Positions 26,765-45,831 of a stretch of 59,139 bases of DNA are shown piece by piece. The translations under genes were made by a program, and so were the position numbers. Every line of letters begins with the position of its first letter. Position 1 is the stretch's first letter. The DNA comes from a virus, in the IMG/VR virus record IMGVR_UViG_3300043580_000025, one strand, 5' to 3'. The notes beneath the pieces were generated by a model. It worked only from the letters and a program-made list of their open reading frames with translations, was not told the DNA's origin and searched no databases.

Positions 26765-27691
26765 TTAAGCAACGAGTGCTGCGTTGCTGATGTGCCGAAT
26801 GCGCGCAGCGGCACGACCGTGTTCAATCACGATGCCGTTGTACCATTCGACCCGAGTGCGGAACACTGGCGCGGCTTGCAGCTCGCCCAGGTCGCGAACG
26901 TCCATTGGGCCGTTCTGGATTCCTTGGATGCGGCCGGGACCGATGCTCAGGATATAGAGCGACGTTGCCGTTGCCGGACCCGATGCCGCTGCTTCGTCGA
27001 AGCCCAGGATGTCGTCGCCGCCGTTCGCACCGTATGCGACGAGCAACGGGATATCGTTGTAGTTCGAGATGCGCCGACCAAATGCGTCCGCGCTGTAGGT
27101 CACGAAGCCTGCGACGGCCGTCGTGCGCGCCGCTGCCGTGAACTTCCGGCGCATGGCTTTGGACATCAGATAGTGCGTCGGGTTGTCGACGGTATCGGTT
27201 GCGTCGTCGATCACACCGAGCGATAACGGAGAGCCGCCTGATGCCGCGCCTGCCGAAATGACTTGCGCATTCACCAGACGCTTCTGCAGGCCGTCGAACT
27301 CGCGTGGGTTGGTCGATGAATCGCCCTTGATGAACTTCTGCGTCCAGCCCGCCGCGAGGGACTTCACTTTCATGCGCTCATGCGTTGCGCGCACACCTTG
27401 GCCTTGCGTCTGGATGATGAAGCGGTCCACGTCCAGATCGCCGCCAGCAATCACCAGTGCTTCGGTCTGCGGATTCAGCACGCCGGACGACTCCGGGAAT
27501 GCCTCGTTCACGCCCCGGAAGCTGATGCCTGGGAGCGAGCCTTCGCGGTTGTACTTCAGTGCGTTACCTGCGATGTCATCGAACGGCAAGACCTGGAGGA
27601 TGTCCGATTCTTGCGCAAACATTTCGATGACGGCAGAGCGCACGATGTCGCCAGAGTTCAGCTTGGCGGCTTCGACGAGTGTCAGTGCCAT
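26765..27691 (-). CDS. major capsid protein
   Basis: 308 aa, N-terminus LTLVEAAKLNSGD..VIEMF typical of a capsid family; follows scaffold; AAGGTG SD. Confidence 0.85.
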   Translation of the reverse strand: MALTLVEAAKLNSGDIVRSAVIEMFAQESDILQVLPFDDIAGNALKYNREGSLPGISFRGVNEAFPESSGVLNPQTEALVIAGGDLDVDRFIIQTQGQGVRATHERMKVKSLAAGWTQKFIKGDSSTNPREFDGLQKRLVNAQVISAGAASGGSPLSLGVIDDATDTVDNPTHYLMSKAMRRKFTAAARTTAVAGFVTYSADAFGRRISNYNDIPLLVAYGANGGDDILGFDEAAASGPATATSLYILSIGPGRIQGIQNGPMDVRDLGELQAAPVFRTRVEWYNGIVIEHGRAAARIRHISNAALVA

Positions 27692-27716: not shown

Positions 27717-28517
27717 CTAGCGCGATGCCCCCACCGCCTGCTGAGCGCGGTATTGGGTTATGCGTGCCTCGGGCGGGAGTTTTGAAAGATCGGGACCGCC
27801 TTTGGCAGCGCCGTTGGTGCCCATTGCACCGGAACCCTGTGCCCTCGGCCAGAGGTGTGGCGCGTTCTCGCGCAGCGATGCAGCCCACTCCTCGGGTGTG
27901 AGTGGCGTCTTGCCATCCTTCCCGAAGACAACGGTATCGCCGTTCATAGCGATCACGTTGCCATCGTCGTCGATGGTCCAGCCCGCGCCCTTAGCGCGCA
28001 GCACGATGTCCTCAGTTGCTTCAGGCAGCGCTCCTGCCTTCTGCGATGCCTTGATGATTGATTCGGCCATTGCGCGTTCGGCCAGCTTGTCGGCCTTCGC
28101 TTTCAGCTTGTCGGCCCGCGCGGTTTCCGCCTTGACCTTCTTGTCCCAATCCGCAGCCATACGTTCGGTGCGCTTATTGAGCACCTCGTCTAGCTTGCCT
28201 TGCTTGATCAGGCCCGCCTCTTCATCGTCCACAAACCTCTTGAGGATGGTGCGAACGGCTTCAGGATCGATGCCTTCGAACTGCGCGAGGTTGGCCTTGA
28301 GTTCTTTCTCCTTGCCAATCAACTCGCCGTTCTTTGCCTTCAGCCCTGCGACCTGCTCATTGACAGCCGCCTCGATCATGCCTTGCACGACGGGCTTCAG
28401 GTTCTCGGGAATTGCCGGTGGGGCTGGGGGCGGTGGAGGTGGTGGAGCGCCGCCGCCGCCTGGAGGATCAGGATCGGGTGCGCGGTATTTCATCATGACA
28501 TTTCGCGTCAGGTACAT
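27717..28517 (-). CDS. scaffolding protein
   Basis: 266 aa, poly-Pro then Ala/Lys/Glu coiled-coil, immediately upstream of the capsid gene. Confidence 0.75.
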   Translation of the reverse strand: MYLTRNVMMKYRAPDPDPPGGGGAPPPPPPPAPPAIPENLKPVVQGMIEAAVNEQVAGLKAKNGELIGKEKELKANLAQFEGIDPEAVRTILKRFVDDEEAGLIKQGKLDEVLNKRTERMAADWDKKVKAETARADKLKAKADKLAERAMAESIIKASQKAGALPEATEDIVLRAKGAGWTIDDDGNVIAMNGDTVVFGKDGKTPLTPEEWAASLRENAPHLWPRAQGSGAMGTNGAAKGGPDLSKLPPEARITQYRAQQAVGASR

Positions 28518-28520: not shown

Positions 28521-28835
28521 TCAATTCCCCTTGGGAGTTGGATCGGATGCGATGGATTCCATGTCCCAGATCATCGCGGTGGTAATGCCGCCCATCAGGC
28601 AATCGAAGCAGACGCAGGCGTAGATGACCGTGCCGCCAGTTGGCCCGCGCCTGCCCTGGATAGCGCCGTTCACGACGCGGGCGTAGGTCTGGGAGCCGCA
28701 GCGTTTGCATCGCAACAGCCCCCGACGTAACGGCCGTGCCTTGGCCCGCAGCAGCACCGCCAGCTTAGGAGGAGGTGCAGCCGATGCGATGAGTGTTAAG
28801 CCGGACATAAGCAAACCACGGACACGGTACGCCAT
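28521..28835 (-). CDS. small zinc-ribbon protein
   Basis: 104 aa with CKRC ... CVCFDC; first minus-strand ORF after the island. Confidence 0.55.
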   Translation of the reverse strand: MAYRVRGLLMSGLTLIASAAPPPKLAVLLRAKARPLRRGLLRCKRCGSQTYARVVNGAIQGRRGPTGGTVIYACVCFDCLMGGITTAMIWDMESIASDPTPKGN

Positions 28836-28898
28836 GTCCGGCGCAAAACCAAGGCATATTTGCTAACACATTGTTGCTAGCTGGGCAATAGCCAAATC

Positions 28899-28923
28899 AA
28901 TCCCCACTAATTTAGTCGGGATT
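28899..28923. promoter_or_regulatory. 25-bp near-perfect palindrome in divergent control region (operator candidate)
   Basis: AATCCCCACTAA-T-TTAGTCGGGATT, 11/12 arm matches. Confidence 0.5.
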
Positions 28924-28936
28924 ATGGCTGGCCCTA

Positions 28937-28966
28937 TTGCGTTACGCTTTAACGGCGTGCTATAGT
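28937..28966 (+). promoter_or_regulatory. sigma70-type promoter, island cassette (33-nt class)
   Basis: TTGCGT-N18-TGcTATAGT; 33 nt from -10 to ATG 29000. Confidence 0.6.
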
Positions 28967-28999
28967 TGGGCCATCGCAACCCCAAACAGAAAGCACGAA

Positions 29000-29566
29000 A
29001 TGAACGCCAACCACACATTCACCCGAGTCCGCGTGATCGAAGACGAAGCCGCTTACGAAGCCGCCATCAAGCGCCGGATCAAGAACGCCTCGCAAGACAA
29101 GTTCTTCCGCGAGAACACCGACGCCCAGGAAGTCCTCGACTGCCTGCGCCAAGCGTCCAACTGGTCCGAGTTTGCAAAATCCCTGATGGCTTCCTACGAA
29201 GAGCGCGGAACGCTAAGCCCTGCCCAATTGAACGCAGGTCGCAGCATGCTTGCCAAGCAGAAAGAAAAAGCAGCCGCGAAGGTCGCAGCCCGCAACGCAC
29301 CGGCAACCTCTGGACGCCACCTGAGCACAATCGGCCAGCGCGAGACCTTTACGCTGACGATCAATAAGCTGATGGAAATGGAAGGCATGTACGGCACCTC
29401 CTACCTGCATATTTGCGCCGACGCCAACGGCAACTCGGTGGTGTACAAAGGCACTTCGGAGCTTGGCAAGCAAGGCGAGACGGTAACGGTCAAGGCAACG
29501 ATCAAAGAGCACACTGCTTACAACGGCGTTGCCCAGACGACGATCAACCGCCCCAAAGTGCTGTAA
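29000..29566 (+). CDS. hypothetical protein (188 aa)
   Basis: ATG 6 nt after CAGAAAGC box; the track's 21-codon upstream extension is the promoter/leader. Confidence 0.8.
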   Translation: MNANHTFTRVRVIEDEAAYEAAIKRRIKNASQDKFFRENTDAQEVLDCLRQASNWSEFAKSLMASYEERGTLSPAQLNAGRSMLAKQKEKAAAKVAARNAPATSGRHLSTIGQRETFTLTINKLMEMEGMYGTSYLHICADANGNSVVYKGTSELGKQGETVTVKATIKEHTAYNGVAQTTINRPKVL

Positions 29567-29574
29567 AGCAGGCA

Positions 29575-29604
29575 AAGCCCGACCAAGCAGGTCGGGTTTA
29601 TTTA
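29575..29604 (+). terminator. rho-independent terminator
   Basis: CCCGAC-7nt-GTCGGG stem followed by TTTATTT. Confidence 0.65.
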
Positions 29605-29611
29605 GCCCCTA

Positions 29612-29641
29612 TTGCGTTACGCTTTAACCGCACGCTATAAT
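29612..29641 (+). promoter_or_regulatory. sigma70-type promoter, island cassette (33-nt class)
   Basis: TTGCGT-N18-TATAAT; 22 nt upstream block identical to 28932..28953. Confidence 0.6.
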
Positions 29642-29674
29642 TGCGCCATCGACACCCCAAACAGAAAGCAGCAA

Positions 29675-29890
29675 ATGACCTCCAAGCCCACCGCCGCCGC
29701 AGCCTACGCGATGCACGTCGCTAACATCGAAGCCCAGATCGCCACCTTGCAAGCCAAGCTCGCCAAGCACAAAACCACGCCGGTCAAGCCCGGTTCCGAC
29801 AGCTTCGCCTCCTGGGGCAAAGTAGGCGACCTCGCGCACGTCAGCGAAACCCTGACCGAGATCAACGAATTCTTCGGCAGCGCACTGTGA
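29675..29890 (+). CDS. hypothetical protein (71 aa)
   Basis: ATG 6 nt after CAGAAAGC. Confidence 0.7.
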   Translation: MTSKPTAAAAYAMHVANIEAQIATLQAKLAKHKTTPVKPGSDSFASWGKVGDLAHVSETLTEINEFFGSAL

Positions 29891-30084
29891 AAATTAACCC
29901 CCCACTCATGGCCGTCGATTACACCCTGAACGAATTGCGCGCACGCCTGCCAGCGCTGCGCGAGCAAAGGGAAAACCCCAGCGTCGCATCAAGCTACAAT
30001 CGCTTGGTCGGAAAAATCGACGCGCTGGAAGCGGTTAAACGCTTACTGGAAACCGGTTCCTACTTTGAACTGCGACTACTCTGA
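29887..30084 (+). CDS. hypothetical protein (65 aa)
   Basis: GTG start overlapping upstream stop (GTGA). Confidence 0.5.
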   Translation: MKINPPLMAVDYTLNELRARLPALREQRENPSVASSYNRLVGKIDALEAVKRLLETGSYFELRLL

Positions 30085-30094
30085 AAGGCAAAGC

Positions 30095-30289
30095 ATGAAG
30101 CAACGCGACAAGGAAAACACGGTGGACGAGATGGTCGTCTACTTTAATAGGCACCCCAACATCCGCACGGCAACTCGGACGCTAAGCGTACAGAACGTCG
30201 AAGACCTGGAGGAACTTGGCTTTCGAGTTAGGCCAGTGCGCGGTGAATCTGGCGTGTACCGCCGTTGTTTAATTGAGCGACGCGATTGA
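30095..30289 (+). CDS. hypothetical protein (64 aa)
   Basis: ATG 6 nt after TGAAAGG, in which TGA is the upstream stop. Confidence 0.6.
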   Translation: MKQRDKENTVDEMVVYFNRHPNIRTATRTLSVQNVEDLEELGFRVRPVRGESGVYRRCLIERRD

Positions 30290-30298
30290 TGGTATAAT
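30290..30298 (+). promoter_or_regulatory. extended -10 promoter, island cassette (26-nt class)
   Basis: TGgTATAAT; 26 nt to ATG 30325. Confidence 0.55.
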
Positions 30299-30324
30299 TG
30301 CGGCACACCAACAGAAAGCACAGA

Positions 30325-30513
30325 ATGAAGATCAGCAAGCAAGACCTCACGATGACCCTGGGCACCGCCGCCGACATGGTCGCACGCGCGGACAAATTTG
30401 AGCCGCACCAATTGGCAAGGGCGCGTGTTGTGGTCGCCTACTGGGCTGCGCTGCGCGCCAAGCAAGCTCGCACAAAAGCAACAAAAGCCGCAAAGACTTG
30501 CGTGACGCGATAA
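30325..30513 (+). CDS. hypothetical protein (62 aa)
   Basis: ATG 6 nt after CAGAAAGC. Confidence 0.65.
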   Translation: MKISKQDLTMTLGTAADMVARADKFEPHQLARARVVVAYWAALRAKQARTKATKAAKTCVTR

Positions 30514-30527
30514 CGCGATGCTATAAT
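30498..30527 (+). promoter_or_regulatory. sigma70-type promoter, island cassette (33-nt class)
   Basis: TTGCGT-N18-TGcTATAAT; overlaps the last codons of 30325..30513. Confidence 0.6.
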
Positions 30528-30560
30528 TGCCACATCGCAACCCCAAACAGAAAGCACCAA

Positions 30561-30821
30561 ATGACCAAAGTCAAAGCCCACCTCCTGAGCATCGCCCTGA
30601 TCAAAGGCAACCTGAAGCTGGCCGCGCACCTCGCCATGCTGGCATCCATTGAATACGGCAACACGGTCAACCTCGACAACGCCTACGCAAAGGTCAAGGA
30701 CGCGATTACGCCGAAGCAATGGTCGGGATACCTGGGCGCATTGGCAAAGGATGGTGTGTATGCACCTTGCACCGACCCGGACTTCGCTGGCTTCTACGGC
30801 ACCTTGACCACATACGCCTAA
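30561..30821 (+). CDS. hypothetical protein (86 aa)
   Basis: ATG 6 nt after CAGAAAGC. Confidence 0.7.
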   Translation: MTKVKAHLLSIALIKGNLKLAAHLAMLASIEYGNTVNLDNAYAKVKDAITPKQWSGYLGALAKDGVYAPCTDPDFAGFYGTLTTYA

Positions 30822-30827
30822 AGCAAA

Positions 30828-30845
30828 ACAGCCCGCAAGGGCTGT
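30828..30845 (+). other. GNRA-tetraloop hairpin abutting the next promoter
   Basis: ACAGCCC-GCAA-GGGCTGT; no T-tract; 3' arm supplies the TG of the next extended -10. Confidence 0.5.
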
Positions 30846-30853
30846 GCTACAAT
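30845..30853 (+). promoter_or_regulatory. extended -10 promoter, island cassette (26-nt class)
   Basis: TGcTACAAT; 26 nt to ATG 30880. Confidence 0.55.
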
Positions 30854-30879
30854 ACCTGCACACCAACAGAAAGCACAGA

Positions 30880-31089
30880 ATGAAAATCGAAACCGCCGCC
30901 GAAGTCCTCGCAACCGTCAAGGTGCTCGAAGCACGCGCACGCAAAGTGCCGAAGCCAGCGCGCAACGCCTATCACCAGATCGCCAAGCGTCGCATCGCTG
31001 ACGCGCGCCTCTTTGCCGACAAGAACCTGGACCACGCCATTGCTTGCATCCGCGAGGCACGCCACTGCTTGGAACTGATTGTGTACTGA
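30880..31089 (+). CDS. hypothetical protein (69 aa)
   Basis: ATG 6 nt after CAGAAAGC. Confidence 0.65.
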   Translation: MKIETAAEVLATVKVLEARARKVPKPARNAYHQIAKRRIADARLFADKNLDHAIACIREARHCLELIVY

Positions 31090-31098
31090 TGCTATAAT
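31090..31098 (+). promoter_or_regulatory. extended -10 promoter, island cassette (26-nt class)
   Basis: TGcTATAAT; 31093..31120 is identical to 30293..30320. Confidence 0.6.
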
Positions 31099-31124
31099 TG
31101 CGGCACACCAACAGAAAGCAGATA

Positions 31125-31385
31125 ATGACACGCAAGACAACCGAACAAATCGAAGAAGGCCGCTGGATGCGCGGCATCAACCGCGACATCGAGAAGCACG
31201 ACAAGATCAGCAAGCTCGAAGACAAGATCATCGCATCGTGCATCATTGGCACGCTCATGCGCGAAGGCAAGACGGTTCACTACATTAACTTGACGAACCG
31301 CAAAGGCCAATACACCGGCAAGATCAAGACTGGCACGCACGACGCGCTGCTCGACTACCTCATTCGCAACAAATACGTCCGCTGA
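31125..31385 (+). CDS. hypothetical protein (86 aa)
   Basis: ATG 6 nt after CAGAAAGC. Confidence 0.7.
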   Translation: MTRKTTEQIEEGRWMRGINRDIEKHDKISKLEDKIIASCIIGTLMREGKTVHYINLTNRKGQYTGKIKTGTHDALLDYLIRNKYVR

Positions 31386-31387
31386 TC

Positions 31388-31618
31388 ATGAAACACGCAA
31401 AATTCTTCGAAGCCAACCCAAACGCAACCCTGGACTTCTTTGGCAAGTTCACCCGGCAAGAGCTGCAGGCAATGAACGAGCCAGCGTGGAAGGAGCTGCG
31501 CCGCCTGGACAACACCGGCGACAAGCTAGCGTTCCGCGCCTATATGCGGCTGCACGAAGGCCCACGCGGTCTGATCAACTGCATCATGGCCGACCACGAT
31601 CTGCCGAACAGATTTTAA
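31388..31618 (+). CDS. hypothetical protein (76 aa)
   Basis: ATG 2 nt after upstream stop. Confidence 0.6.
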   Translation: MKHAKFFEANPNATLDFFGKFTRQELQAMNEPAWKELRRLDNTGDKLAFRAYMRLHEGPRGLINCIMADHDLPNRF

Positions 31619-31648
31619 TTTCCCAACCACCGCCAAAGAAAGCAAAGC

Positions 31649-32047
31649 ATGACATTCAAACTCTCAGCAGAACAAACAAGGGCGCGCGACGCGCTGGCCG
31701 TACGCCTCGAAGAGGAACGCGCCAAGGTCGACACCGCCGTGACCGACTTCAACGACGCGCTGACCATCGCGCGCAACACGCTGCAAGAAGCGCTCGACGC
31801 CTATAACGGCGTGCTTAGCGAAGCGCGCTTCTTCGCCGCCGACGTTTCCCAGGACTGGGAGAACGACTTCGAAGAGAAGTCCGAGCGTTGGCAGGAAAGC
31901 GAGAAGGGCGAAGGCGTGCGCGAGATGATCGAAGCGTGGCAAAACGTCGACCTCGAAGACCTGGAGATCGACATGCCCGACGCCGAGATCGACCTGAACG
32001 TGGACACGCACGACGAAACGCTGACCAACCTCCCGACCGAAGCGTGA
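31649..32047 (+). CDS. strongly acidic protein (132 aa)
   Basis: ATG 6 nt after AGAAAGC; about 35 D/E versus 12 K/R by manual count. Confidence 0.7.
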   Translation: MTFKLSAEQTRARDALAVRLEEERAKVDTAVTDFNDALTIARNTLQEALDAYNGVLSEARFFAADVSQDWENDFEEKSERWQESEKGEGVREMIEAWQNVDLEDLEIDMPDAEIDLNVDTHDETLTNLPTEA

Positions 32048-32060
32048 CGCGATAACAGGA

Positions 32061-32069
32061 TGCTATAAT
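32061..32069 (+). promoter_or_regulatory. extended -10 promoter, island cassette (33-nt class)
   Basis: TGcTATAAT; 33 nt to ATG 32103. Confidence 0.55.
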
Positions 32070-32102
32070 CGCATCATGCCCACCCGAAACAGAAAGCTAG
32101 AA

Positions 32103-32279
32103 ATGATGACGAACCGACCGCTCACGCTCTGGAGCCGCCGTACCAACGCCGCCGTTGGCAACCATTGGGTCGCTGAGCGCGGCGTGACCGAAGCGACCGC
32201 CCAGGAATGGCTCGCGGTGTTCCGCAAGGACGAGCCGAACGTGATTTTCGTCGCTTGCGCGCACCGGCCGCGCGGCTAA
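32103..32279 (+). CDS. hypothetical protein (58 aa)
   Basis: ATG 6 nt after CAGAAAGC. Confidence 0.6.
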   Translation: MMTNRPLTLWSRRTNAAVGNHWVAERGVTEATAQEWLAVFRKDEPNVIFVACAHRPRG

Positions 32280-32286
32280 AATTAAA

Positions 32287-32311
32287 CACGCCGTTATGGG
32301 ATAACGGCGTG
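32287..32311 (+). other. perfect 11-bp hairpin overlapping the promoter spacer
   Basis: CACGCCGTTAT-GGG-ATAACGGCGTG, immediately followed by CTATAAT. Confidence 0.7.
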
Positions 32312-32318
32312 CTATAAT
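32310..32318 (+). promoter_or_regulatory. extended -10 promoter
   Basis: TGcTATAAT; 36 nt to ATG 32355. Confidence 0.5.
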
Positions 32319-32354
32319 CGAAGCATGCAAACCACCCCCCACCTTGGAGCCCCC

Positions 32355-32609
32355 ATGAAGAAACCCGTAGGCCAGATCGAGTGGCGCGACGAAAGCGGCC
32401 GGAAACACTGGGCCGAGTTCTACTTGGCCGCTGACAACTCCTGGGGCGCGCTGAACGGTTTCCCTTTTGAGATCGAGTTCAACAAAACGGGACAAAAACG
32501 CTTTGCCCAGATTTTGCGGACGGTGGTGCACGTCGCCATCGACGAGGACGAGACCGGCAAGCCCATCACCGACAAATGGACCGTCAAGCGCACCGACTTC
32601 CCTGCCTGA
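32355..32609 (+). CDS. hypothetical protein (84 aa)
   Basis: GGAG 5 nt upstream of ATG 32355. Confidence 0.65.
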   Translation: MKKPVGQIEWRDESGRKHWAEFYLAADNSWGALNGFPFEIEFNKTGQKRFAQILRTVVHVAIDEDETGKPITDKWTVKRTDFPA

Positions 32610-32619
32610 AAGAACACCG

Positions 32620-32865
32620 ATGAACTTCCCTAGCGCTCCCGCAAACAACCCCCTGGACGCTGGCTCGCAAGCCAGCGACAAAACCTTCTTTGGCGAGTTT
32701 GACCGCTACGCCCTCTTTGCGGTCCACACGCGCTTCGACGCGGTCCAATGGTTTGTGGCCGACGCCGAGCTGCCTGACCCAGTGACCGGCAAGCCAAGCA
32801 TTATCCGGCAAGCGGCAACGCCAGAAGAAGCGGTTGCAGGGTTACGCTTTAACGACGTGCTATAA
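32620..32865 (+). CDS. hypothetical protein (81 aa)
   Basis: ATG after TGAAAGA (TGA is the upstream stop); the 3' end encodes the next promoter. Confidence 0.6.
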   Translation: MNFPSAPANNPLDAGSQASDKTFFGEFDRYALFAVHTRFDAVQWFVADAELPDPVTGKPSIIRQAATPEEAVAGLRFNDVL

Positions 32866-32866
32866 T
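32858..32866 (+). promoter_or_regulatory. extended -10 promoter, island cassette (26-nt class)
   Basis: TGcTATAAT preceded by GGTTACGCTTTAAC block; stop TAA of the upstream gene lies inside TATAAT. Confidence 0.55.
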
Positions 32867-32892
32867 CTGGGCACACCAACAGAAAGCCCAGC

Positions 32893-33048
32893 ATGAACAA
32901 GATCAAAGTCACCATCAAATGTCGCGGCCAAGCCGAAGTCACAAAGGTCGTCCACGCCGACGACCTGAGCGCCGCGATGGACATTGTCCAAAACGAGATG
33001 GAAGCCGCTGGGTTTTTTGTTGAATTCCTCAGCGCCAGCTTCGCCTAA
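32893..33048 (+). CDS. hypothetical protein (51 aa; below ORF-track cutoff)
   Basis: Translated manually: MNKIKVTIKCRGQAEV...SASFA; ATG 6 nt after CAGAAAGC and 26 nt after the -10. Confidence 0.6.
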   Translation: MNKIKVTIKCRGQAEVTKVVHADDLSAAMDIVQNEMEAAGFFVEFLSASFA

Positions 33049-33062
33049 GTAGAAAGCAAAAC

Positions 33063-33257
33063 ATGACCGCCAAGCAATACGTTATCCGCGCAACCCAGAT
33101 CAAAGGTCTGGACCTCATCAAGCCCACGAAAGGCAACCCCGGCATCCTTGCCATCGACTACACCCGCAAGGTGGGCGGCGTCCACCCCTGCGTCATCGAC
33201 GCGCGGACCTGGGCCGAAGCACAGACCCAACTCAATAACTACTACATGGTGGGCTGA
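33063..33257 (+). CDS. hypothetical protein (64 aa)
   Basis: ATG 6 nt after TAGAAAGC. Confidence 0.6.
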   Translation: MTAKQYVIRATQIKGLDLIKPTKGNPGILAIDYTRKVGGVHPCVIDARTWAEAQTQLNNYYMVG

Positions 33258-33266
33258 AGCCCTTTT

Positions 33267-33431
33267 ATGAAATACGCTCAAGAACTCCGCGCGCAGGCGC
33301 AAGCACTGCGCATCAAAGCCCGCACGATGATCGTGCTGCACGCATGGCGTCTATTGATTCAGGCCCGCCAGCTTGAAGCCGAAGCCGACGCCATCGAAGC
33401 ACGCATCGCTTTACGCGAGATGGAAGAATGA
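33267..33431 (+). CDS. hypothetical helical protein (54 aa; below ORF-track cutoff)
   Basis: Translated manually: MKYAQELRAQAQ...REMEE; ATGA overlap with the next gene. Confidence 0.5.
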   Translation: MKYAQELRAQAQALRIKARTMIVLHAWRLLIQARQLEAEADAIEARIALREMEE

Positions 33432-33874
33432 CCGCACTAACCATTGCAGAACGCCAATCGCTTTACCGCGCGCGACGCACCTTAGAAGGCAAGACCGAAG
33501 TGCGTGGTATATACTTGCAGCCAGAGCAACACGCAGCGTTGCGCGCAATTGCCCGCACGCAGATTAACCAAACCAACAGAAAGGTACCACTCATGCAACC
33601 CAGCGTCGGCGCTTTGCCGCAAACCAAGAACATGATCTTCGTCCCGGCGCACATGGCGCTTGTCGAGACGGACGCACCCACCATCGCCGTCAAGCTGGGC
33701 GAGAAGGGATATTGGCCGGTGTACCACCCGAGCCATGAAGAGTTGAACGAGCGATATGCAAGCGAAGCGGTGCTTCGATCCGCAGTGCAGGCGTCGATGT
33801 TTGGATGGGATGCACCTATCGCACGCGAAGCAATCGAGTGGCTCGCAGAAGCAGACGATGCGTCGGCCGCGTGA
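33428..33874 (+). CDS. hypothetical protein (148 aa) with possible internal start at 33593
   Basis: In-frame CAGAAAGG box 9 nt before internal ATG 33593. Confidence 0.65.
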   Translation: MTALTIAERQSLYRARRTLEGKTEVRGIYLQPEQHAALRAIARTQINQTNRKVPLMQPSVGALPQTKNMIFVPAHMALVETDAPTIAVKLGEKGYWPVYHPSHEELNERYASEAVLRSAVQASMFGWDAPIAREAIEWLAEADDASAA

Positions 33875-34502
33875 CAATCAGCGCAGCAGGGTCTACGCCT
33901 GGGAGAAGTTCGTCACAAAAACGACGCACTGGACCGGTACCTTCAAGACCCTGGAAGAGTGCCAAAACTACCTAACCCCGATCTGGCGCACGGAGCGCGG
34001 GCGCTATGGGCGCGCTAGGGTTGCCCCACCGCCCATCGAACGGCCCGCCTGGGGCCAGCGTAGCGCCATTGCCCACCATTCCCACCGCATTACCCTGCCG
34101 ACCTGGGCGCGCAATCCGTGGGTCATCCTCCACGAGGCCGCGCACCGGCTGACACCGCGCGATGAAGCGCATGGCCCACGCTTTGTGGGCGTCCTGATGG
34201 GCCTTGCCTGCCGCCACCTGGGATACAACGCCGACGAGCTTATGGCTGCGGCCGATGACATGGGCGTAAATTATCATGTGCGCTCAATAGGCAGCGTGCC
34301 GGTGCTTGCGCCGCGCGGTCCATCGTGGCACGTCGAGCGCGCTGTGCGCGACGAAGGACCGATGACGGAAATGGATATCGCGTGCTGGTGCAATCTAACC
34401 TATTTGCAAGTGCGCGGAGCTGCGCTACATTTGATCAAAACGGGCCGCGCGAGATGGCTGCGTAAGAAATTAGTGCTGCTATCAAACGAAGGTACAACAT
34501 GA
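33858..34502 (+). CDS. HExxH metallohydrolase-like protein (SprT/TIGR04338-like)
   Basis: RVYAWE near N-terminus and ILHEAAH motif; start ATG 33858 rather than track start 33756. Confidence 0.6.
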   Translation: MRRPRDNQRSRVYAWEKFVTKTTHWTGTFKTLEECQNYLTPIWRTERGRYGRARVAPPPIERPAWGQRSAIAHHSHRITLPTWARNPWVILHEAAHRLTPRDEAHGPRFVGVLMGLACRHLGYNADELMAAADDMGVNYHVRSIGSVPVLAPRGPSWHVERAVRDEGPMTEMDIACWCNLTYLQVRGAALHLIKTGRARWLRKKLVLLSNEGTT

Positions 34503-35176
34503 GTCCAGTGGTCATCGGGAACGCAACGCTCTACCTGGGCGATTGCGCTGAGATACTTTTATCCTTGCCAAAGGTCGACGCGGTCATCACCGATCCGCCT
34601 TATGGCATCGGCGCATCGTCCAAGAAGTTTATCAACGGCACCTCGAAATGGAGCAAGGACTACTACGAGGACGTTTGCTGGGACACTGCGCCGCCCGATA
34701 ACATGTTGATCAAACTGGTCGTCGCAATGGGCGAGGTCGCGATCCTCTGGGGCGGCAACTACTTCGACCTCCCGCCTTCGCGCTGCTACCTCGTCTGGGA
34801 TAAAATGATCCGCGACTTCAGCTACGCCGACTGCGAGTTCGCCTGGACGAATCAAGACGCCAACGCTCGCATCAAATCGCTGAGCACCGCCGCTGCAACT
34901 GGCGACGGCCGCGTCCATCCAACGCAAAAACCACTCGAGCTTATGCACTGGTGCATCGCGCAATGCAAAAACAACCCGCAGACCGTGCTCGACCCATTCA
35001 TGGGGTCAGGGACCACCGGCGTTGCTGCTGTACAATTGGGCCGCAGCTTTATTGGGATTGAGCGCCTGCCAAAGTACTTCGACATCGCTTGCGAGCGAAT
35101 CGCGCTGGCCTACGCGCAGCGTCCCCTCTTTGAGCCCGAACCATTTAAACCACCCGTGCAACTGAGGATCGAATGA
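34499..35176 (+). CDS. DNA methyltransferase 1 (beta-class, DPPY; probably m6A)
   Basis: VDAVITDPPYGIG (motif IV), HPTQKP, DPFMGSGTTG (motif I) in beta-class order. Confidence 0.88.
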   Translation: MSPVVIGNATLYLGDCAEILLSLPKVDAVITDPPYGIGASSKKFINGTSKWSKDYYEDVCWDTAPPDNMLIKLVVAMGEVAILWGGNYFDLPPSRCYLVWDKMIRDFSYADCEFAWTNQDANARIKSLSTAAATGDGRVHPTQKPLELMHWCIAQCKNNPQTVLDPFMGSGTTGVAAVQLGRSFIGIERLPKYFDIACERIALAYAQRPLFEPEPFKPPVQLRIE

Positions 35177-35922
35177 ATAGCCCCGTCATCGTCGGAGACG
35201 CAACGCTCTACCTGGGCGATTGCCGCGAGATACTTCCATCGCTGCCAAAGGTCGACGCCGTCATCACCGACCCACCCTACTCGGAGCAGTGCCACACCGG
35301 GCACGACGCTGGCTCGCGCGCTGGCAACGACGGCGCTGTGCGCTCGACACTTGGCTACTCGGCGCTGACCCAGGCCGACGTGCTTGCGCTGGCCGACGCC
35401 TACGTCGCTGCGTCGGTGTCCTGGGTCGTCTGGATGACCGATAGCAACCTCGCCATGCAAGTGCGCGCAGCGTTGGAGCAACGGGGGCTTTGTACATTCT
35501 CGCCGCTGCCGTTCTACCAACCTGGACGCAGCATTCGCCTATCGGGCGACGGGCCGTCAAGCTGGACGGACTGGATCGTCGTCGCACGCACAAAGGCCGC
35601 GCACAAATGGGGCACGCTGCCTGGAGGCTACATCGCTGGGCCTGGATGGAATGATAAGGCACTCATGGGCGGCAAACCAACCGCGCTCATGGACGCACTG
35701 GTCATGGACTACACGCGCCTGGGCGCGACGGTGCTCGACTCGCACATGGGCGCTGGGACGACCGGCATCTCTTGCATGAGGACCGGCCGCAAGTTCATCG
35801 GCTGCGAGATAGACCCTGCGACCTTCGACATCGCCTGCCACCGCATCGAGCAAGCGTACAACCAACGGCCGCTCTTCATGCCCGAGCCGCTGAAGCCGCA
35901 AGAGCAACTCGGACTGATCTAA
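35173..35922 (+). CDS. DNA methyltransferase 2 (beta-class, DPPY, divergent middle)
   Basis: VDAVITDPPYSEQ, GGKPTALM, DSHMGAGTTG. Confidence 0.8.
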   Translation: MNSPVIVGDATLYLGDCREILPSLPKVDAVITDPPYSEQCHTGHDAGSRAGNDGAVRSTLGYSALTQADVLALADAYVAASVSWVVWMTDSNLAMQVRAALEQRGLCTFSPLPFYQPGRSIRLSGDGPSSWTDWIVVARTKAAHKWGTLPGGYIAGPGWNDKALMGGKPTALMDALVMDYTRLGATVLDSHMGAGTTGISCMRTGRKFIGCEIDPATFDIACHRIEQAYNQRPLFMPEPLKPQEQLGLI

Positions 35923-36612
35923 ATGCACAAAGTCATCATCGAGAACGCGACGCTCTACCTGGGCGATTGCCGCGACATCCTGCCGACGCTGGGCAAAGTC
36001 GATGCCGTCATCACCGACCCACCTTATGGCATCAACTACGGGAAGCTGATGAAGGGAAAAGGCGACGGGAACGGCGGCTTAGATCGCAATCGATGGAAGG
36101 ACTACGCTGCGTTCGACTGGGACACTGATCGCCCAAGCCGCGAGGTCTTTGACTTGCTGCGCGACGTCAGCAAGCAGCAGATAATTTGGGGCGGCAACTA
36201 CTTCGCTGATCTTCTCCCGCCATCCATGCAGTGGTTGGTGTGGGATAAGTGCCAAACGTTTTCGCTCGCTGACTTTGAGCTTGCCTGGACGTCGCAGCAG
36301 AAAGCCGCACGCCTCTTCCGGCTATCTCGCCCAGAAGCCCTGCAAGATGGTCGCCAGCACCCGACGCAGAAGCCGATTGCGTTGATGAAATGGTGCATTG
36401 CAATTGTCAGCGACGCACTCGAGATCGTTGATCCATTCATGGGATCAGGGACCACCGGCGTTGCTGCAGTCGAAATGCGCAAAGGCTTCATCGGCATCGA
36501 GCGCGAGCCTGCGTACTTCGATATCGCGTGCAAGCGCATCGCGCACGCCTACAACCAGCCGCCACTCTTTGACGAACCAATGAATCCGCAAGAGCAGATC
36601 GGGCTAATTTAA
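35923..36612 (+). CDS. DNA methyltransferase 3 (beta-class, DPPY)
   Basis: VDAVITDPPYGINYG, HPTQKP, DPFMGSGTTG. Confidence 0.88.
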   Translation: MHKVIIENATLYLGDCRDILPTLGKVDAVITDPPYGINYGKLMKGKGDGNGGLDRNRWKDYAAFDWDTDRPSREVFDLLRDVSKQQIIWGGNYFADLLPPSMQWLVWDKCQTFSLADFELAWTSQQKAARLFRLSRPEALQDGRQHPTQKPIALMKWCIAIVSDALEIVDPFMGSGTTGVAAVEMRKGFIGIEREPAYFDIACKRIAHAYNQPPLFDEPMNPQEQIGLI

Positions 36613-36617
36613 TTGTG

Positions 36618-36626
36618 TGCTACAAT
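36618..36626 (+). promoter_or_regulatory. extended -10 promoter
   Basis: TGcTACAAT; 36 nt to ATG 36663, CAGAAAGG in the leader. Confidence 0.5.
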
Positions 36627-36662
36627 CTGGGCTGGATTTAACGCAAACAGAAAGGCACCAAC

Positions 36663-36902
36663 ATGGCAAAGATTAAGCTCAAGACCTTCAAAGGCATCGT
36701 GGCCGCGCGCCAGAACGCGCTGTACACAATGGCAAACGGCGACAAGGTCTACGCAATGGGCGGCGAGATGGCCGAAGTCGGCGCAGAGATCAAGTACGTC
36801 GCAAGCCCCTCCAGCCGCACGGTACAAATGGGCGGCAGGTCGAACGCCTGGGCCGAGAGCCGCGACGACTACAGCAAAATGTTTTTCAGGCAATACGAAT
36901 GA
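36663..36902 (+). CDS. hypothetical protein (79 aa)
   Basis: ATG after CAGAAAGG box. Confidence 0.65.
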   Translation: MAKIKLKTFKGIVAARQNALYTMANGDKVYAMGGEMAEVGAEIKYVASPSSRTVQMGGRSNAWAESRDDYSKMFFRQYE

Positions 36903-37099
36903 GATTCGTCACCTGCAGCCGCGCGCTGTACCGGGTCACCGAGCGCAACTACCGCCGCCTCATGCTCGCCATCGCGCGCAATGAGGAGGTCGACATCAAT
37001 AAGTTTGGCATCCGCCTGGGCGTCATCGACGCGGATATCACCAAACTCGATCCCTATAGCGGACAACTCGCGCTAGGCACGCCGCCGCGCAAACGCTAA
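36899..37099 (+). CDS. hypothetical protein (66 aa)
   Basis: ATGA overlap with upstream ORF; last gene of the island. Confidence 0.55.
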   Translation: MRFVTCSRALYRVTERNYRRLMLAIARNEEVDINKFGIRLGVIDADITKLDPYSGQLALGTPPRKR

Positions 37100-37302
37100 C
37101 GGCACAGCAGCCGCCTGCGATAGTCCTTCTCGCTTTCGCCAGCGCGCTGCGGTGGCTTCGCATCGGTCCCATTCAGGTGGTCCGGCAGCTGCAGCTTCGA
37201 ACGCTTCGTGCGCACCGGCACCTGCGGCACCGCCTCTTCGAGCTTCTTCAACATCTCGCTGAAGTCGGCCGCGTCTTCAATTGCCCGATTCATCATTTGC
37301 AT
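37096..37302 (-). CDS. hypothetical protein (68 aa)
   Basis: GGAGAG SD; convergent 4-nt overlap with the island end. Confidence 0.55.
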   Translation of the reverse strand: MQMMNRAIEDAADFSEMLKKLEEAVPQVPVRTKRSKLQLPDHLNGTDAKPPQRAGESEKDYRRRLLCR

Positions 37303-37311: not shown

Positions 37312-37452
37312 CTATATGCTGCGCGATACCAAGAGCGACGCCATCCAGCACGCAAGGCCCGCCGCCATGAGATTCAGACGACCCGCTGTAACACCGACAG
37401 CCGCCAAGATAAACAGCACCAACGCTGCGATTAAAAATGCCATACCAATCAT
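37312..37452 (-). CDS. small two-helix membrane protein (46 aa; below ORF-track cutoff)
   Basis: Translated manually: MIGMAFLIAALVLFILAAVGVTAGRLNLMAAGLACWMASLLVSRSI; AAGGTG upstream. Confidence 0.5.
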   Translation of the reverse strand: MIGMAFLIAALVLFILAAVGVTAGRLNLMAAGLACWMASLLVSRSI

Positions 37453-37462: not shown

Positions 37463-38581
37463 TCACAATCCCGCCCTCTTGAAAGCGTCGGCGTTGCGCT
37501 TGCGCAGCACGTCGAGGTTGATATCCTCGCCGCTTGCGTTGCGCATATCCTCCAGCGATAGGTTGCCCTCAGAGAACAACTTAGCGCGCGTGTCGCCTAG
37601 CACCTGCCGCTGCCTCGCTGGCGTCTGGTCAGCGAGCCATTCTTCGTAGGTCGTCTTCGCGGGCACTTGCCCGTCCATCGCTGAGCGCGTGCCTGGATCA
37701 AAGTCCTCCCACTCGCCAACGTCACCCGTCGCACCAAGTTCCTTCCACGACTTAGTGAGCTGCACGTACGTCGACCTGCATTGCCAATGCAGCCGCCCAG
37801 GTCCAGCCCCCCACGGAAATTCATGGTCGATAGGTTTGTGATCGAGCGTGTACGTCTTGCCGTCACGCATCTGACATTGGGGCGTCGTCCGATTGTCCAG
37901 CGTCGACAACCATTGCAACCCCTTCAGGATATCCTCATTGGCTTCGGTCACCATATCCTTCGCAAAGTGCGCCGTGTGCGATAGCGCCGTGCGCACAACC
38001 GCCGCCGCTTCCCGCCGCGTGATCTCCAGCGCGCCGTCGCGATACTTGTTCTCGCGCGTCCCGCGCAGGTCGCGCACGATCTGATCGGTCGTCCTATTTT
38101 GCACGTAGCCATCGGCAATCGTGCGCCGGATTAACCGCGCCTTGCTTGCCTCTTGGTCCTTGAGGAACTCGGACAGCAACGCACCTTGGAATGGCCGCGA
38201 CATCGCACCGGCGTAGGCTTGCGTCACGCTGACGCGCGCGATGTCGAAGGATGGCGGCATATTGCGCGCGAGCATCCCCTCTTGGAATTGAAGCTCCAGC
38301 GCCGTCAAGCCCCTGATCTCTTCGCGCAACGTGCTATCGACCTCGGCGTACATGGTGTGGTTTAGATCGCGCACGCTCTCTAGCATAACCTCGAGCCGCT
38401 TGATCGTAAAACGCTCCGGGTCCATCGTCTCGAGCTTTGTGATTAGCTCAGTGAATAGCGCCGCGTCCGCGCGATTCAAGATCGTTATTATGCGACGCAC
38501 CACGTTGTTGGAATAGGCGCGCAGATTCACGGCGTGATCGATCTGCGCATCTCGCAACGCGACGTTGACGGATTCGGCCAC
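37463..38581 (-). CDS. head morphogenesis protein (Mu F / SPP1 gp7-like)
   Basis: NRTTPQCQMRDGKTY motif, position after portal; GTG start. Confidence 0.8.
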   Translation of the reverse strand: MAESVNVALRDAQIDHAVNLRAYSNNVVRRIITILNRADAALFTELITKLETMDPERFTIKRLEVMLESVRDLNHTMYAEVDSTLREEIRGLTALELQFQEGMLARNMPPSFDIARVSVTQAYAGAMSRPFQGALLSEFLKDQEASKARLIRRTIADGYVQNRTTDQIVRDLRGTRENKYRDGALEITRREAAAVVRTALSHTAHFAKDMVTEANEDILKGLQWLSTLDNRTTPQCQMRDGKTYTLDHKPIDHEFPWGAGPGRLHWQCRSTYVQLTKSWKELGATGDVGEWEDFDPGTRSAMDGQVPAKTTYEEWLADQTPARQRQVLGDTRAKLFSEGNLSLEDMRNASGEDINLDVLRKRNADAFKRAGL

Positions 38582-38584: not shown

Positions 38585-40249
38585 CTACCTTGCCCGCGCC
38601 TTGGCACGCCTTTCCGGGGGCGCTGGGGGCACGACCTTGATCGGGGGCGTTGGGGGCTTTGCAGCCCCATTCCCGCCCGCCCCTGCGCCTGCCGCCGCCG
38701 CTGCGGCCGTAGCCGCCAGCCCAGGCGGCGTGACGCCGGGAAGCCCAGGCGCAGGCACGCCCATCATGCCGAGCGGTTCCTCTTCCTCGACGTCCTTGTC
38801 GATATCTTCGTTGCTGCGCTCAGTAGCAATAAGCCCAAGCCGCCGATAAAAATCGCGCACGTCATTCTTCGCCAGCAAGCCGCTCTGCCACGACTTAATG
38901 AGTTCAGCCATGAGTTGCGGATTCGCCTGTAGCTGGACGAAGTCCTGCTGTATCTTAAACGCGTCGGCATAATCCGCCTCTGCTGGCATGTCCATGAAGG
39001 CCGCACAGAAGCCTATGGCACGTTGATAGGCTTCGCTCACGTTCGATACGCATAGCGATAGGACGGAAGTCGTTGCCTCGCGATCATTATTTTCACCAGT
39101 CGCAGTCTTGTTTGCCTTGGTCCCTTCAATCATGCGCGCACCGACTGCGATCATCTGCGCCTCTTTGTGCACCATCGCATCAGCCGCTAGCGTGTTGGGC
39201 TGCGCTTGCTCCATCCCAAACGCCGCGCCTTGCGGCAATAGGATCGGGCTGCGCGAGCCGATGTACATCTTCTGCCCGGTGTACCTGCGCTCGCCGTTGT
39301 TATCGAGCACGTACGGATTCTGCATGAAGTCACGCCATTGCTCCGTGAGGCCACTGATCCACGGCTGCACTTGCCCGCAGAAGAAAACGCTGTCCTCATA
39401 GTCGGCGCTGTTGCGGAAGTGCGCGAGGTTCAATTGCGCGAGCCCGTATAGCGGGGCTGGATCGATGTTCGCATCGTTGTTATTCGAACCGATGAACGTG
39501 AATGGGATGTCCGTGAGCACCTTGCCTTTGCTGCGCAGCTCCACGGCGTCGATGATATCCTCTTCCCCCGTTGCCACATTCTTGACCGTGCCCAGCGCAA
39601 CGAGCCGCTTCGTCTTTGTGACGCCAGTGTCCTCACGCCACAGCCGCACCTGCACGTTGCCCGCCTCATTGCGCGTGATCTCGCGCCATTGCTTCACGAT
39701 AACGATGCCCCACTCGCCATCCTCTTCCTCGGCTTCCTCTTCGAGGACGATCATGCACAGCGACGCTTTGCCATCGACGATGTCATACCGCCAATTGATG
39801 ATCGACTCAGCGTGGTACGCCTTGATGACCGGATGCCCCAGCGCCTCGGACCAATCGACAAACAAACCATGCCGACCGACTGCGAGGTTATTGTTTAGCG
39901 TCGCCTGCGACTGCTGATAAAGGCTAACGCCCAGGCCATCACAATCTTTGAGCAAGTACTCGAGCTGCGTGGGCAACTCGGTCACTGGATCGCGATGGAA
40001 GGCCAGCCCGACCAAGCCCTCGAGTGTGAATTGGGTCGCCGGGTACCACACCGCACGCGAGCGATAGGCTTTGTTGCGCGCTACGTTCTCGACGCTCGCA
40101 TCGGTCGAGTTAAGCATGGGCAAGTAGGCGTCACCGCGCAGCGCGTTGTCGCCGGACACGACATCGCGCACGACGGCCCACCGCTCTTTGATCGTCAGAG
40201 GGACGCGGTTGAACGAGACATCCGCGACGAGTCCAGTTGGTGCGCTCAT
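38585..40249 (-). CDS. portal protein
   Basis: 554 aa directly after terL; N-terminal region typical of a portal family (DUF4055-like); Ala/Gly/Pro-rich tail. Confidence 0.8.
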   Translation of the reverse strand: MSAPTGLVADVSFNRVPLTIKERWAVVRDVVSGDNALRGDAYLPMLNSTDASVENVARNKAYRSRAVWYPATQFTLEGLVGLAFHRDPVTELPTQLEYLLKDCDGLGVSLYQQSQATLNNNLAVGRHGLFVDWSEALGHPVIKAYHAESIINWRYDIVDGKASLCMIVLEEEAEEEDGEWGIVIVKQWREITRNEAGNVQVRLWREDTGVTKTKRLVALGTVKNVATGEEDIIDAVELRSKGKVLTDIPFTFIGSNNNDANIDPAPLYGLAQLNLAHFRNSADYEDSVFFCGQVQPWISGLTEQWRDFMQNPYVLDNNGERRYTGQKMYIGSRSPILLPQGAAFGMEQAQPNTLAADAMVHKEAQMIAVGARMIEGTKANKTATGENNDREATTSVLSLCVSNVSEAYQRAIGFCAAFMDMPAEADYADAFKIQQDFVQLQANPQLMAELIKSWQSGLLAKNDVRDFYRRLGLIATERSNEDIDKDVEEEEPLGMMGVPAPGLPGVTPPGLAATAAAAAAGAGAGGNGAAKPPTPPIKVVPPAPPERRAKARAR

Positions 40250-45393: not shown

Positions 45394-45446
45394 TTTCTGG
45401 ACCTTTCTGGTGTTGCTGCTGGGCTAGCCCGTAGGCTTGGCCCTAC

Positions 45447-45474
45447 ATTCTACTCGATTTTCCTGGGATGGCAA
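45447..45474 (-). promoter_or_regulatory. leftward early promoter (primase/helicase operon)
   Basis: Minus strand TTGCCA-N16-TAGAAT. Confidence 0.55.
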
Positions 45475-45497
45475 GTGGTGCTGAACCATTGGGGTTA

Positions 45498-45525: not shown

Positions 45526-45555
45526 CCGGCCACCCGCAAACCAGAAAGGTCAGAA

Positions 45556-45810: not shown

Positions 45811-45831
45811 CGGACAAACAGAAAGCCAGAA

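Follow-up and report, generated by a model that had tools for sequence, protein, structure and literature searches.

Analysis of the IMG/VR virus record IMGVR_UViG_3300043580_000025 (59,139 nt; the whole of this stretch is referred to below as the window) revealed that the head gene module on its minus strand is interrupted by a block of 23 plus-strand genes, isl01 to isl23. The window is an apparently complete, circularly permuted phage genome of approx. 59 kb and approx. 58% GC from an uncultivated soil phage lineage. The block (the island) lies between the gene of a MuF-like minor head protein and the genes of m104, a scaffold-like protein and the major capsid protein. We consider it probable, at roughly two chances in three, that the island is a hyperplastic region of early genes located at a hotspot between MuF and m104/scaffold/capsid, placed on the opposite strand, predicted to be driven by sigma-70 and evolving by cassette exchange. 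Its main structural features are repeated promoter-leader cassettes and a cassette-wise turnover of genes, both of which had been overlooked in an initial annotation of this DNA.

Ten of the island genes are preceded by a common composite element of 40–106 nt, which comprises an A-rich stretch, often a GC-rich hairpin, an extended −10 (TGCTATAAT or a variant with one mismatch; TGnTATAAT type), a spacer of approx. 6–20 nt, a CA-rich leader and the ATG. The leader has the form CACACCAAC or CATCGCAACCCCAA and ends in ACAGAAAG, 6–9 nt ahead of the start codon; in cassette 1, ACAGAAAG is placed at 28986. The 12-mer TAACGGCGTGCT of the divergent gap upstream of isl01 recurs as exact copies at two other plus-strand sites of the island. 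With up to one mismatch, TGCTATAAT occurs 15 times in the window versus 4.9 ± 2.2 times in shuffled sequences, and the plus strand of the island holds 10 of these 15 matches and all five of the exact copies. A generic repeat finder independently returned the cassettes as direct-repeat families D1, D2, D4, D5 and D7 (42–106 nt, 60–84% identity), which fall into two classes, one with a long and one with a short leader. Related phages contain more than 60 distinct copies, and their short islands carry a variant cassette (TCTGGTGTATACT...TTCAGCAACCC...ACAGAAAG), and a pattern scan of IMG/VR located the cassette almost exclusively in this clade. Judging from the positions of the −10 hexamers (Table 1), the island is made up of about ten short predicted transcription units, each headed by a copy of the cassette: 01, 02–04, 05, 06, 07, 08–10, 11, 12–13, 14–21 and 22–23.

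The leader links the island with the early arm of the genome (45.8–59 kb). All 16 copies of the motif ACAGAAAG are on the plus strand, nearly every one shortly ahead of an ATG, and they occur both in the island and in the early arm (in the latter at 45818, 51305, 52445, 54018, 54371 and 56136). A GAAAG-type ribosome-binding motif heads 12 of 22 island genes, 14 of 29 early-arm genes and 3 of 35 minus-strand genes, while a Shine–Dalgarno (SD) core (GGAG/GAGG/AGGA) heads 15 of 26 genes of the late block at 2.6–28.8 kb versus 2 of 22 island genes. The shared leader would place the island in the same class as the early arm, both in timing and in translation. The ten promoter-like sites with an extended −10, together with the ACAGAAAG/GAAAG leader that the island has in common with the early arm and not with the late genes, give substance to the early-type signals that the initial annotation had mentioned. 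Extended −10 promoters need no −35 hexamer, and the host sigma-70 holoenzyme can use them directly. The host polymerase would fire such −35-independent cassette promoters soon after infection.

In order to follow the history of the island, we compared the window with a clade of relatives from IMG/VR (MuF identity 74–80%, capsid identity 92–98%). Among the relatives with a capsid protein identity of 92% or more, all those whose fetched sequence extends into the MuF-to-m104 slot have an opposite-strand island there. It is variable in size (approx. 2 to approx. 9 kb), content and order, in support of the accessory island proposed in the initial annotation. The proteins of 13 islands form approx. 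81 clusters, 39 of them singletons; one artefact was removed ("cluster 0", the antisense of a late-strand gene that encodes a 174-aa secreted protein upstream of m104 in some relatives). A loose backbone order (01, 05, c4, 08, c9, 12/10, 17, 18, c11...) is kept amid insertions, deletions, replacements and permutations. Thus isl10 and isl12 are swapped in the window versus all relatives, and clusters c10, c12, c13 and c19 change place. About 10 of the 23 window genes, the three methyltransferases included, occur in none of the related islands, and isl02, isl03 and isl04 are ORFans unique to the window genotype. The only island gene present in every island with a sequenced m104-proximal part is isl01; the notion that it always lies next to m104 proved wrong for the short islands.

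L034 and L036, two more distant relatives with capsid identities of 81% and 75%, contain no island, and in both the genes for MuF, the m104 homologue, the scaffold and the capsid are directly adjacent. This indicates that portal-MuF-m104-scaffold-capsid is the ancestral order and supports the view that an accessory island breaks up an ancestrally contiguous head module. The island-less relatives also lack m46 and m68. These two late-strand genes belong to the variable insert and not to the ancestral operon; besides the opposite-strand island, the insert contains some additional genes on the late strand (m46 and m68 in the window).

Other late-strand extras were observed at the same hotspot in relative L018, namely a gene for a DUF6884 protein after the m68 homologue (5853–6341) and a gene for a 174-aa protein with a signal-peptide-like N-terminus just upstream of m104 (8347–8871). 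A second plastic junction is found in L034, where approx. 4 kb of same-strand genes (3824–7795), one of them encoding a 923-aa protein, separate the portal and MuF genes.

At the nucleotide level the islands are homologous only in patches, and the homologous blocks start at −10 elements (28956, 30290 and 31090). The clearest single event was found in contig L067, which is 99.3% identical to the window over 9.2 kb and carries approx. 277 extra bases at the convergent junction (37093/37100). These bases correspond to exactly one cassette, i.e. TGTGCTATAAT, followed by tgcggcatcagcAACAGAAAGgcaccgaca, an ATG and a 70-aa open reading frame (ORF), with AACAGAAAG as the leader. The mosaic structure, the breakpoints at −10 elements and this single-cassette indel fit recombination between cassettes, and at the level of sequence the gene content turns over cassette by cassette. 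The cassettes, which are 60–84% identical within one genome over their 40–106 nt, would act as portable homology, by means of which promoter-leader-ORF units could be inserted, deleted, replaced or reordered.

The island ORFs are genuine genes. The 23 ORFs tile the plus strand from 29000 to 37099, and an independent metagenome gene caller returned the same set on contigs 99.3–99.97% identical to the window. The window genotype is present in at least 40 metagenomes. The AT skew is +0.23 to +0.32 across 29–34 kb and negative in the flanking minus-strand genes. Among the strains with this level of identity, single nucleotide polymorphisms within the island were synonymous in 40 cases versus 6 non-synonymous, and 38 of the 46 fell in codon position 3, which indicates that the island ORFs, genotype-specific ORFans included, are coding sequences under purifying selection.

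The two gene callings and the change of sign of the skew uphold the 23 plus-strand genes that the initial annotation had placed between MuF/m68 and m104/scaffold/capsid. Its flanking late genes were recovered with Pfam-type matches for TerL, portal, MuF and capsid, its three methyltransferases with N6_N4_Mtase matches (34499–35176, 35173–35922 and 35923–36612), and its HExxH protein as isl18, with HEAAH at residue 92. The convergent 4-nt overlap between isl23 and m68 (37096–37099) was also found as described, with no terminator-like site at the junction. A correction was necessary at the other end of the island. The first gene had been started at TTG 28937, leaving a gap of 100 nt; the cassette, the lengths of the homologues and the independent gene call agree on ATG 29000 (188 aa), so that the divergent gap (28836–28999) measures 164 nt.

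This gap also bears on the transcription of the genes beyond the island. Upstream of m104 it contains a conserved late-strand element, TTGAC/TTGCC-N17-TAGnAA (TTGCCC-N17-TAGCAA in the window), which is, on sequence grounds, a candidate restart promoter for m104, scaffold and capsid. Its −10 is weak and may need an activator. Late transcripts of the distal head and tail genes would probably re-initiate within these 164 nt.

In many cassette copies an inverted repeat is located just upstream of the −10, with its 3′ arm abutting or entering the extended −10. The usual form is GCACCGTTA-N5-TAACGGTGC, with the core CCGTTA-N5-TAACGG. One hairpin of the window (32285–32313) has perfect 12-bp arms (ACACGCCGTTAT-ggg-ATAACGGCGTGC), and a second (30828–30845, ACAGCCC-gcaa-GGGCTGT) is unrelated in sequence to the usual form. 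Of 63 distinct cassettes, 28 have a perfect stem of 5 bp or more directly adjoining the −10. The hairpin overlaps the promoter rather than preceding it. Terminator-like matches lie predominantly on the strand of the late direction (16 of 19 in the window, 19 of 20 in relative L013), the top matches being the cassette hairpins, and T-rich sequence follows these hairpins only in the late (antisense) direction. Such tails and such a strand bias suggest that the hairpins could block late read-through and insulate the island from it.

As regards the cargo, isl19, isl20 and isl21 match PF01555/N6_N4_Mtase with 88, 54 and 72 bits (cut-off 26.7). Their alignment displays the motif order DPPY (motif IV) N-terminal to FxGxG (motif I), and they give sub-threshold matches of the CcrM/PRK11524 type and belong to a very large family of phage-type enzymes of approx. 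225 aa. The three are paralogues (36–53% amino-acid identity) with conserved termini (up to 85% nucleotide identity over approx. 95 nt) and divergent middle (target-recognition) regions, which is the pattern expected if their target-recognition regions differ. No cognate restriction endonuclease was found near them (the neighbours are isl18 and isl22), nor any nuclease domain in the window island. In their domain, motif order, lack of a cognate endonuclease and early-type placement they resemble the orphan beta-class N6-adenine/N4-cytosine methyltransferases by which phages counter restriction; they differ in being three tandem paralogues with conserved termini and swapped middles, predicted to be co-transcribed behind a winged-helix metallohydrolase. 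The cargo would be accessory, and the three enzymes, with different target-recognition regions, would pre-empt host restriction. The initial annotation had proposed a host-takeover or anti-defence island, and this interpretation is partly supported: the variable accessory island with early-type signals stands, and an anti-restriction role of the three methyltransferases is plausible, whereas an inhibitor function of the small ORFs and a head-on collision of transcripts are predictions.

The model of isl18 (predicted local distance difference test score, pLDDT, 92.7) consists of an N-terminal HEAAH domain, weakly like viral "IrrE N-terminal-like" proteins (template modelling (TM) score approx. 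0.5), and a C-terminal winged helix that matches MarR/IclR/GntR domains. Its score against TIGR04338 (HEXXH_Rv0185) was 36.3 bits, below the cut-off of 90, which makes it a relative and not a member of that family, although some of its homologues are named HEXXH_Rv0185 by JGI. There are hundreds of homologues at 55–80% identity, and in the clade the gene is kept in the large, hairpin-rich islands. Homologues of approx. 300 aa were tested as possible isl17-isl18 fusions, which they are not. In a contig of Ramlibacter sp. AN1133 (L070, 8001–10184) an isl18 homologue (61% identity) adjoins DpdA (PF23859), a DNA-modification enzyme, near HNH genes; this adjacency hints at a link between the isl18 family and DNA-modification modules.

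The neighbouring gene isl17 contains an internal ACAGAAAG (33576–33595) 9 nt before ATG 33593 and is represented in relatives by two separate genes (tblastn matches in two pieces), which suggests that it may be a fusion in the window or have an internal start.

The model of isl01 (pLDDT 89.8) combines a four-helix domain with a C-terminal OB fold, the best structural matches of which are SSB, RPA, PriB and the plasmid SSB-like PrgE (E approx. 1e-3). The SSB-like isl01 and the winged-helix metallohydrolase isl18, with its IrrE-like N-terminal domain, may act on nucleic acid or DNA-bound proteins. Sequence searches of the PDB with both proteins gave no match. In PHROGs and Pfam the island proteins matched, apart from the methyltransferases, only PHROGs of no assigned function (isl01, isl02, isl08 and isl12); the remaining 18 window island proteins gave no informative match. 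In a Pfam scan of the proteins of the 13 islands, 76 of the approx. 81 families had no match, and beyond the methyltransferase only HNH_3(-AP2) and weak helix-turn-helix (HTH) signals were detected. Pfam, PHROGs and NCBIfam reported no anti-CRISPR (Acr) or anti-CRISPR-associated (Aca) family; no search was aimed at Acr families, and distant Acrs are possible. Rfam gave no match. The approx. 18 ORFans may be regarded as candidate host-takeover or anti-defence factors.

Several observations weigh against the reading of the island as a cassette-exchanging early region with counter-defence cargo. The timing, the activity of the promoters and the polymerase used are predicted from sequence alone. 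The similarity of the cassettes could reflect shared promoter constraints instead of recombination, although the L067 indel and the breakpoints at −10 elements favour the latter. A clear hairpin is present in only 2–3 of the 10 window cassettes. The strong AT skew inflates the strand bias of the terminator-like matches, and the tails have A residues at their start, which renders a terminator function doubtful. No island protein matches a known anti-defence family, and the fold matches are weak, both for isl01 and for the N-terminal domain of isl18. Finally, the hairpin core is conserved in sequence and so could be an operator.

This last point leads to a different account of the hairpins, to which we assign a modest chance: they would be neither terminators nor recombination sites but operators for a phage repressor (e.g. 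isl18 or isl17), and the island would be a co-regulated regulon shut off before late transcription. The conserved core CCGTTA-N5-TAACGG lies over the −35/spacer region, a classic operator position, and isl18, with its confidently predicted C-terminal winged helix, is conserved in the islands that are large and hairpin-rich. However, the short islands lack isl18 yet keep variant cassettes, the outer stem positions contain several types of Watson–Crick pairs (CG/GC/AT/TA), and hairpins of unrelated sequence occupy the equivalent place, both in the window (30828–30845) and in relative L010 (AGAAGAAGGGC...GCTCTTCTTCT). The varied pairs and the unrelated hairpins lean towards selection for structure. 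Another account concerns the origin of the block, which could be an ordinary early or middle region moved into the head module by an ancestral inversion or translocation, with no special counter-defence role and with a variability that is merely the general plasticity of early ORFans. The leader/ribosome-binding motif and promoter type common to the island and the early arm would be explained in this way, most island genes have no recognizable function, and the early arm has an anti-restriction-type gene of its own (Lar-like, 53544–53975). We nevertheless judge such a relocation unlikely, as none of the protein families of the islands, those of the relatives included, could be matched to a homologue in the early arm of the window, the density of cassettes is 6–8 times higher in the island (approx. 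1.2 versus approx. 0.15 per kb), the island-less relatives reveal the site to be an insertion point, and in Mu-like phages the acr locus is an example of counter-defence genes drawn to this slot (PMC3993853).

The sharply defined insertion site also raised the question of whether the island is an integrated selfish element (a transposon, a satellite or a cassette driven by a homing endonuclease) and not the property of the phage, the more so as the island of L013 carries, on the island strand (17897–18382), an HNH_3-AP2 homing-endonuclease-like gene. This is very improbable: no integrase, transposase or replication gene was found, a search of the island for att-like flanking repeats or other signs of mobile elements detected neither direct nor inverted repeats, its GC content is that of the genome at large, it uses an early leader motif that belongs to the phage, and it is present in all close relatives in a loosely conserved backbone order.

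A hyperplastic early region of this kind has known parallels, the closest being, by its working, the hyperplastic regions of T4-like myoviruses with their promoter-early stem-loop (PeSL) cassettes and, by its position, the acr operon of Mu-like phages. PeSLs (Arbiol et al. 2010, PMC2839356; Comeau et al. 2014, PMC4122927) are likewise repeated composites of approx. 50–100 bp that join a sigma-70-type early promoter, an AT-rich stretch and a stem-loop to the ribosome-binding site and ATG of the downstream gene; they cluster in a variable region rich in small ORFans, each ORF carries its own expression signals, and the endpoints of indels and replacements between close relatives fall in the cassettes. 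PeSL cassettes are also reported to form mini-circles when flanking elements recombine. The differences are that (i) the lineage described here (approx. 59 kb, with an epsilon15-gp7-type capsid protein, a DUF4055 portal and a Phage_tube_2 tail tube) is unrelated to T4, (ii) its hairpin extends over the −35/spacer into the extended −10, whereas that of PeSLs lies upstream of the AT-rich region and a full −35/−10 promoter, (iii) a GAAAG/CA-rich leader takes the place of the SD as ribosome-binding site, (iv) the hairpin, where present, is terminator-like in the antisense (late) and not in the sense direction, and (v) the island sits head-on within the head operon. The unrelated backbone and the different architecture of the element make the resemblance an analogy and not a membership.

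The acr operon of Pseudomonas Mu-like phages (JBD30/DMS3 group) is flanked by the Mu G homologue on one side and by the protease/scaffold gene on the other (Pawluk et al. 2014, PMC3993853). It is likewise a variable accessory operon between two conserved head-morphogenesis genes and occupies the corresponding place, behind the Mu F/G-type genes and ahead of scaffold and capsid, in which related phages carry differing combinations and arrangements of small ORFans at one fixed position. It differs in being a short single operon of few genes, whereas the island is a multi-promoter region of 2–9 kb on the opposite strand, the only recognizable counter-defence genes of which are the methyltransferases. 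The acr genes have the same orientation as the head genes, and the operon ends with the HTH regulator aca1. The host-takeover module of Bacillus phage SPO1 (genes 37–60), reportedly described by Stewart and co-workers in 1998, is said to be a similarly dense cluster of approx. 20–25 small genes of no assigned function, arranged in many short operons that each have a strong host-type early promoter and distinctive translation signals; it reportedly lies in the terminal redundancy and not inside a structural operon. To our knowledge, no repeated recombinogenic cassette or strain-level shuffling has been described for it.

The cultured phages nearest to the window, Pseudomonas phage Medea1, phiAH14a and PseuP_222, share only the head module (approx. 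46% portal identity) and are without the island, and a megablast of the 28–38 kb region against 50,697 GenBank phages gave no match. Clues to the host were equally scarce: the window contains no tRNAs, no close relative was found in GTDB genomes (best capsid match 43%), and the methyltransferase homologues are anonymous metagenome proteins, uninformative in this respect.

We tentatively put forward a broader possibility, namely that the clade has an integrase-free system of cassette capture that evolved independently of the T4-type PeSLs. Its unit would be at once an early promoter, an antisense insulator against late transcription and a recombination site, which would let an early island sit head-on in the head operon and amass, beside a modular triple methyltransferase, a fast-turning pool of undescribed counter-defence or host-takeover proteins (approx. 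81 families in 13 genomes). If our reading of the island is right, "promoter + ORF" cassettes of the PeSL style are a convergent, general route to the turnover of accessory genes and not a peculiarity of T4-like phages, and the MuF/scaffold junction is a place where counter-defence cargo lands repeatedly in phages that are unrelated, as the Mu-like acr locus already shows for one phage group. The cassette motif provides a cheap sequence tag for harvesting the early accessory genes of this clade from metagenomes, and the mostly unannotated protein families form a focused list of candidates for anti-defence screens. The methyltransferase array, with its conserved ends and swapped middles, offers a natural example of specificity shuffling, and the head-on layout a compact system in which to study the means by which phages escape, or make use of, early and late transcription that converge.

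Table 1. Positions of the island, its cassettes and the flanking genes in the window.
Feature	Position	Strand	Remarks
Early/replication arm	45.8–59.1 kb, continuing 1–2.4 kb	+	SNF2 helicase, Pam3 gp33/gp34-like proteins, DUF932, Lar-like protein, PolA
Minus-strand block 1	45393 to 37096	−	RepB-type primase, D5_N helicase, putative small terminase, TerL, DUF4055 portal, MuF, 46-aa ORF, m68
TerL	40472–41944	−	Terminase_6N
Portal	38585–40249	−	DUF4055
MuF-like minor head protein	37463–38581	−	Phage_Mu_F; upstream conserved flank of hotspot
m46	37312–37452	−	46-aa membrane-like ORF between MuF and m68; late-strand accessory gene
m68	37096–37302	−	68 aa; late-strand accessory gene
isl23/m68 convergent junction	37093–37100		4-nt overlap, no terminator; insertion site in strain L067
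Cassette 10 + isl22 (36663–36902), isl23 (36899–37099)	36618–37099	+	−10 TACAAT at 36621–36626
isl19–21	34499–36612	+	three tandem beta-class DNA methyltransferases; DPPY and FxGxG motifs
isl18	33858–34502	+	HEAAH metallohydrolase-like domain and winged helix; in cassette 9 unit
isl17	33428–33874	+	in cassette 9 unit
Cassette 9 + isl14–isl21	32840–36612	+	eight-gene unit; −10 at 32861–32866; stops/starts partly overlapping
Cassette 8 + isl12 (probable start 32355; 32355–32609), isl13 (32620–32865)	32285–32865	+	hairpin over extended −10 (32310–32318; hexamer from 32313)
Cassette 7 + isl11 (probable start 32103)	32042–32279	+	−10 at 32064–32069
Cassette 6 + isl08 (31125–31385), isl09 (31388–31618), isl10 (31649–32047)	31090–32047	+	−10 at 31093–31098
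Cassette 5 + isl07 (30880–31089)	30828–31089	+	hairpin 30828–30845 abuts −10 at 30848–30853
Cassette 4 + isl06 (30561–30821)	30500–30821	+	long-leader class; −10 at 30522–30527
Cassette 3 + isl05 (30325–30513)	30290–30513	+	short-leader class; −10 at 30293–30298
Cassette 2 + isl02 (29675–29890), isl03 (29908–30084), isl04 (30095–30289)	29614–30289	+	−10 at 29636–29641
isl01	29000–29566	+	188 aa; four-helix N-terminal domain, C-terminal OB fold
Divergent intergenic region	28836–28999		cassette 1 (+; −10 TATAGT at 28961–28966) and candidate minus-strand promoter for m104/scaffold/capsid
Minus-strand block 2	28835 to 2655	−	m104, scaffold-like, epsilon15-gp7-type capsid, Phage_tube_2 tail tube, 1483-aa and 2195-aa tail proteins
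m104	28521–28835	−	104-aa Zn-ribbon (CxxC...CxxC); downstream conserved flank
Scaffold-like protein	27717–28517	−	266 aa; downstream conserved flank
Major capsid protein	26765–27691	−	PF20911, GP7; downstream conserved flank

Some features of the remaining genome deserve mention. The m104 gene, an unusual component of a head module, is always found immediately upstream of the scaffold gene, island-less relatives included. The tail region encodes two very large proteins on the minus strand, of 2195 aa (8312–14899) and 1483 aa (15586–20037), the latter without a Pfam match. The Lar-like restriction-alleviation protein of the early arm (PF14354, plus strand) indicates that anti-restriction-type genes also occur outside the island, and a cassette-like promoter (53998–54006) precedes the gene that follows it.

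The PolA-domain ORF begins at position 28, and its match covers only Pfam positions 105–380 (window 1–999 and 57957–59139). Circularisation of the window yields a 409-aa ORF that ends at position 44 in a different frame. This suggests either a split or frameshift of the polymerase where the ends of the window meet, or a junction that is an artefact of assembly or permutation.

Two good sigma-70-like promoters were predicted in the divergent control region between the primase gene and the early arm (45393–45831), one on the plus strand (TTGACA-N16-TACAGT, approx. 45500–45525) and one on the minus strand (TTGCCA-N16-TAGAAT). The latter suggests that the block from the primase to MuF may start from a host-type and not a purely late promoter.

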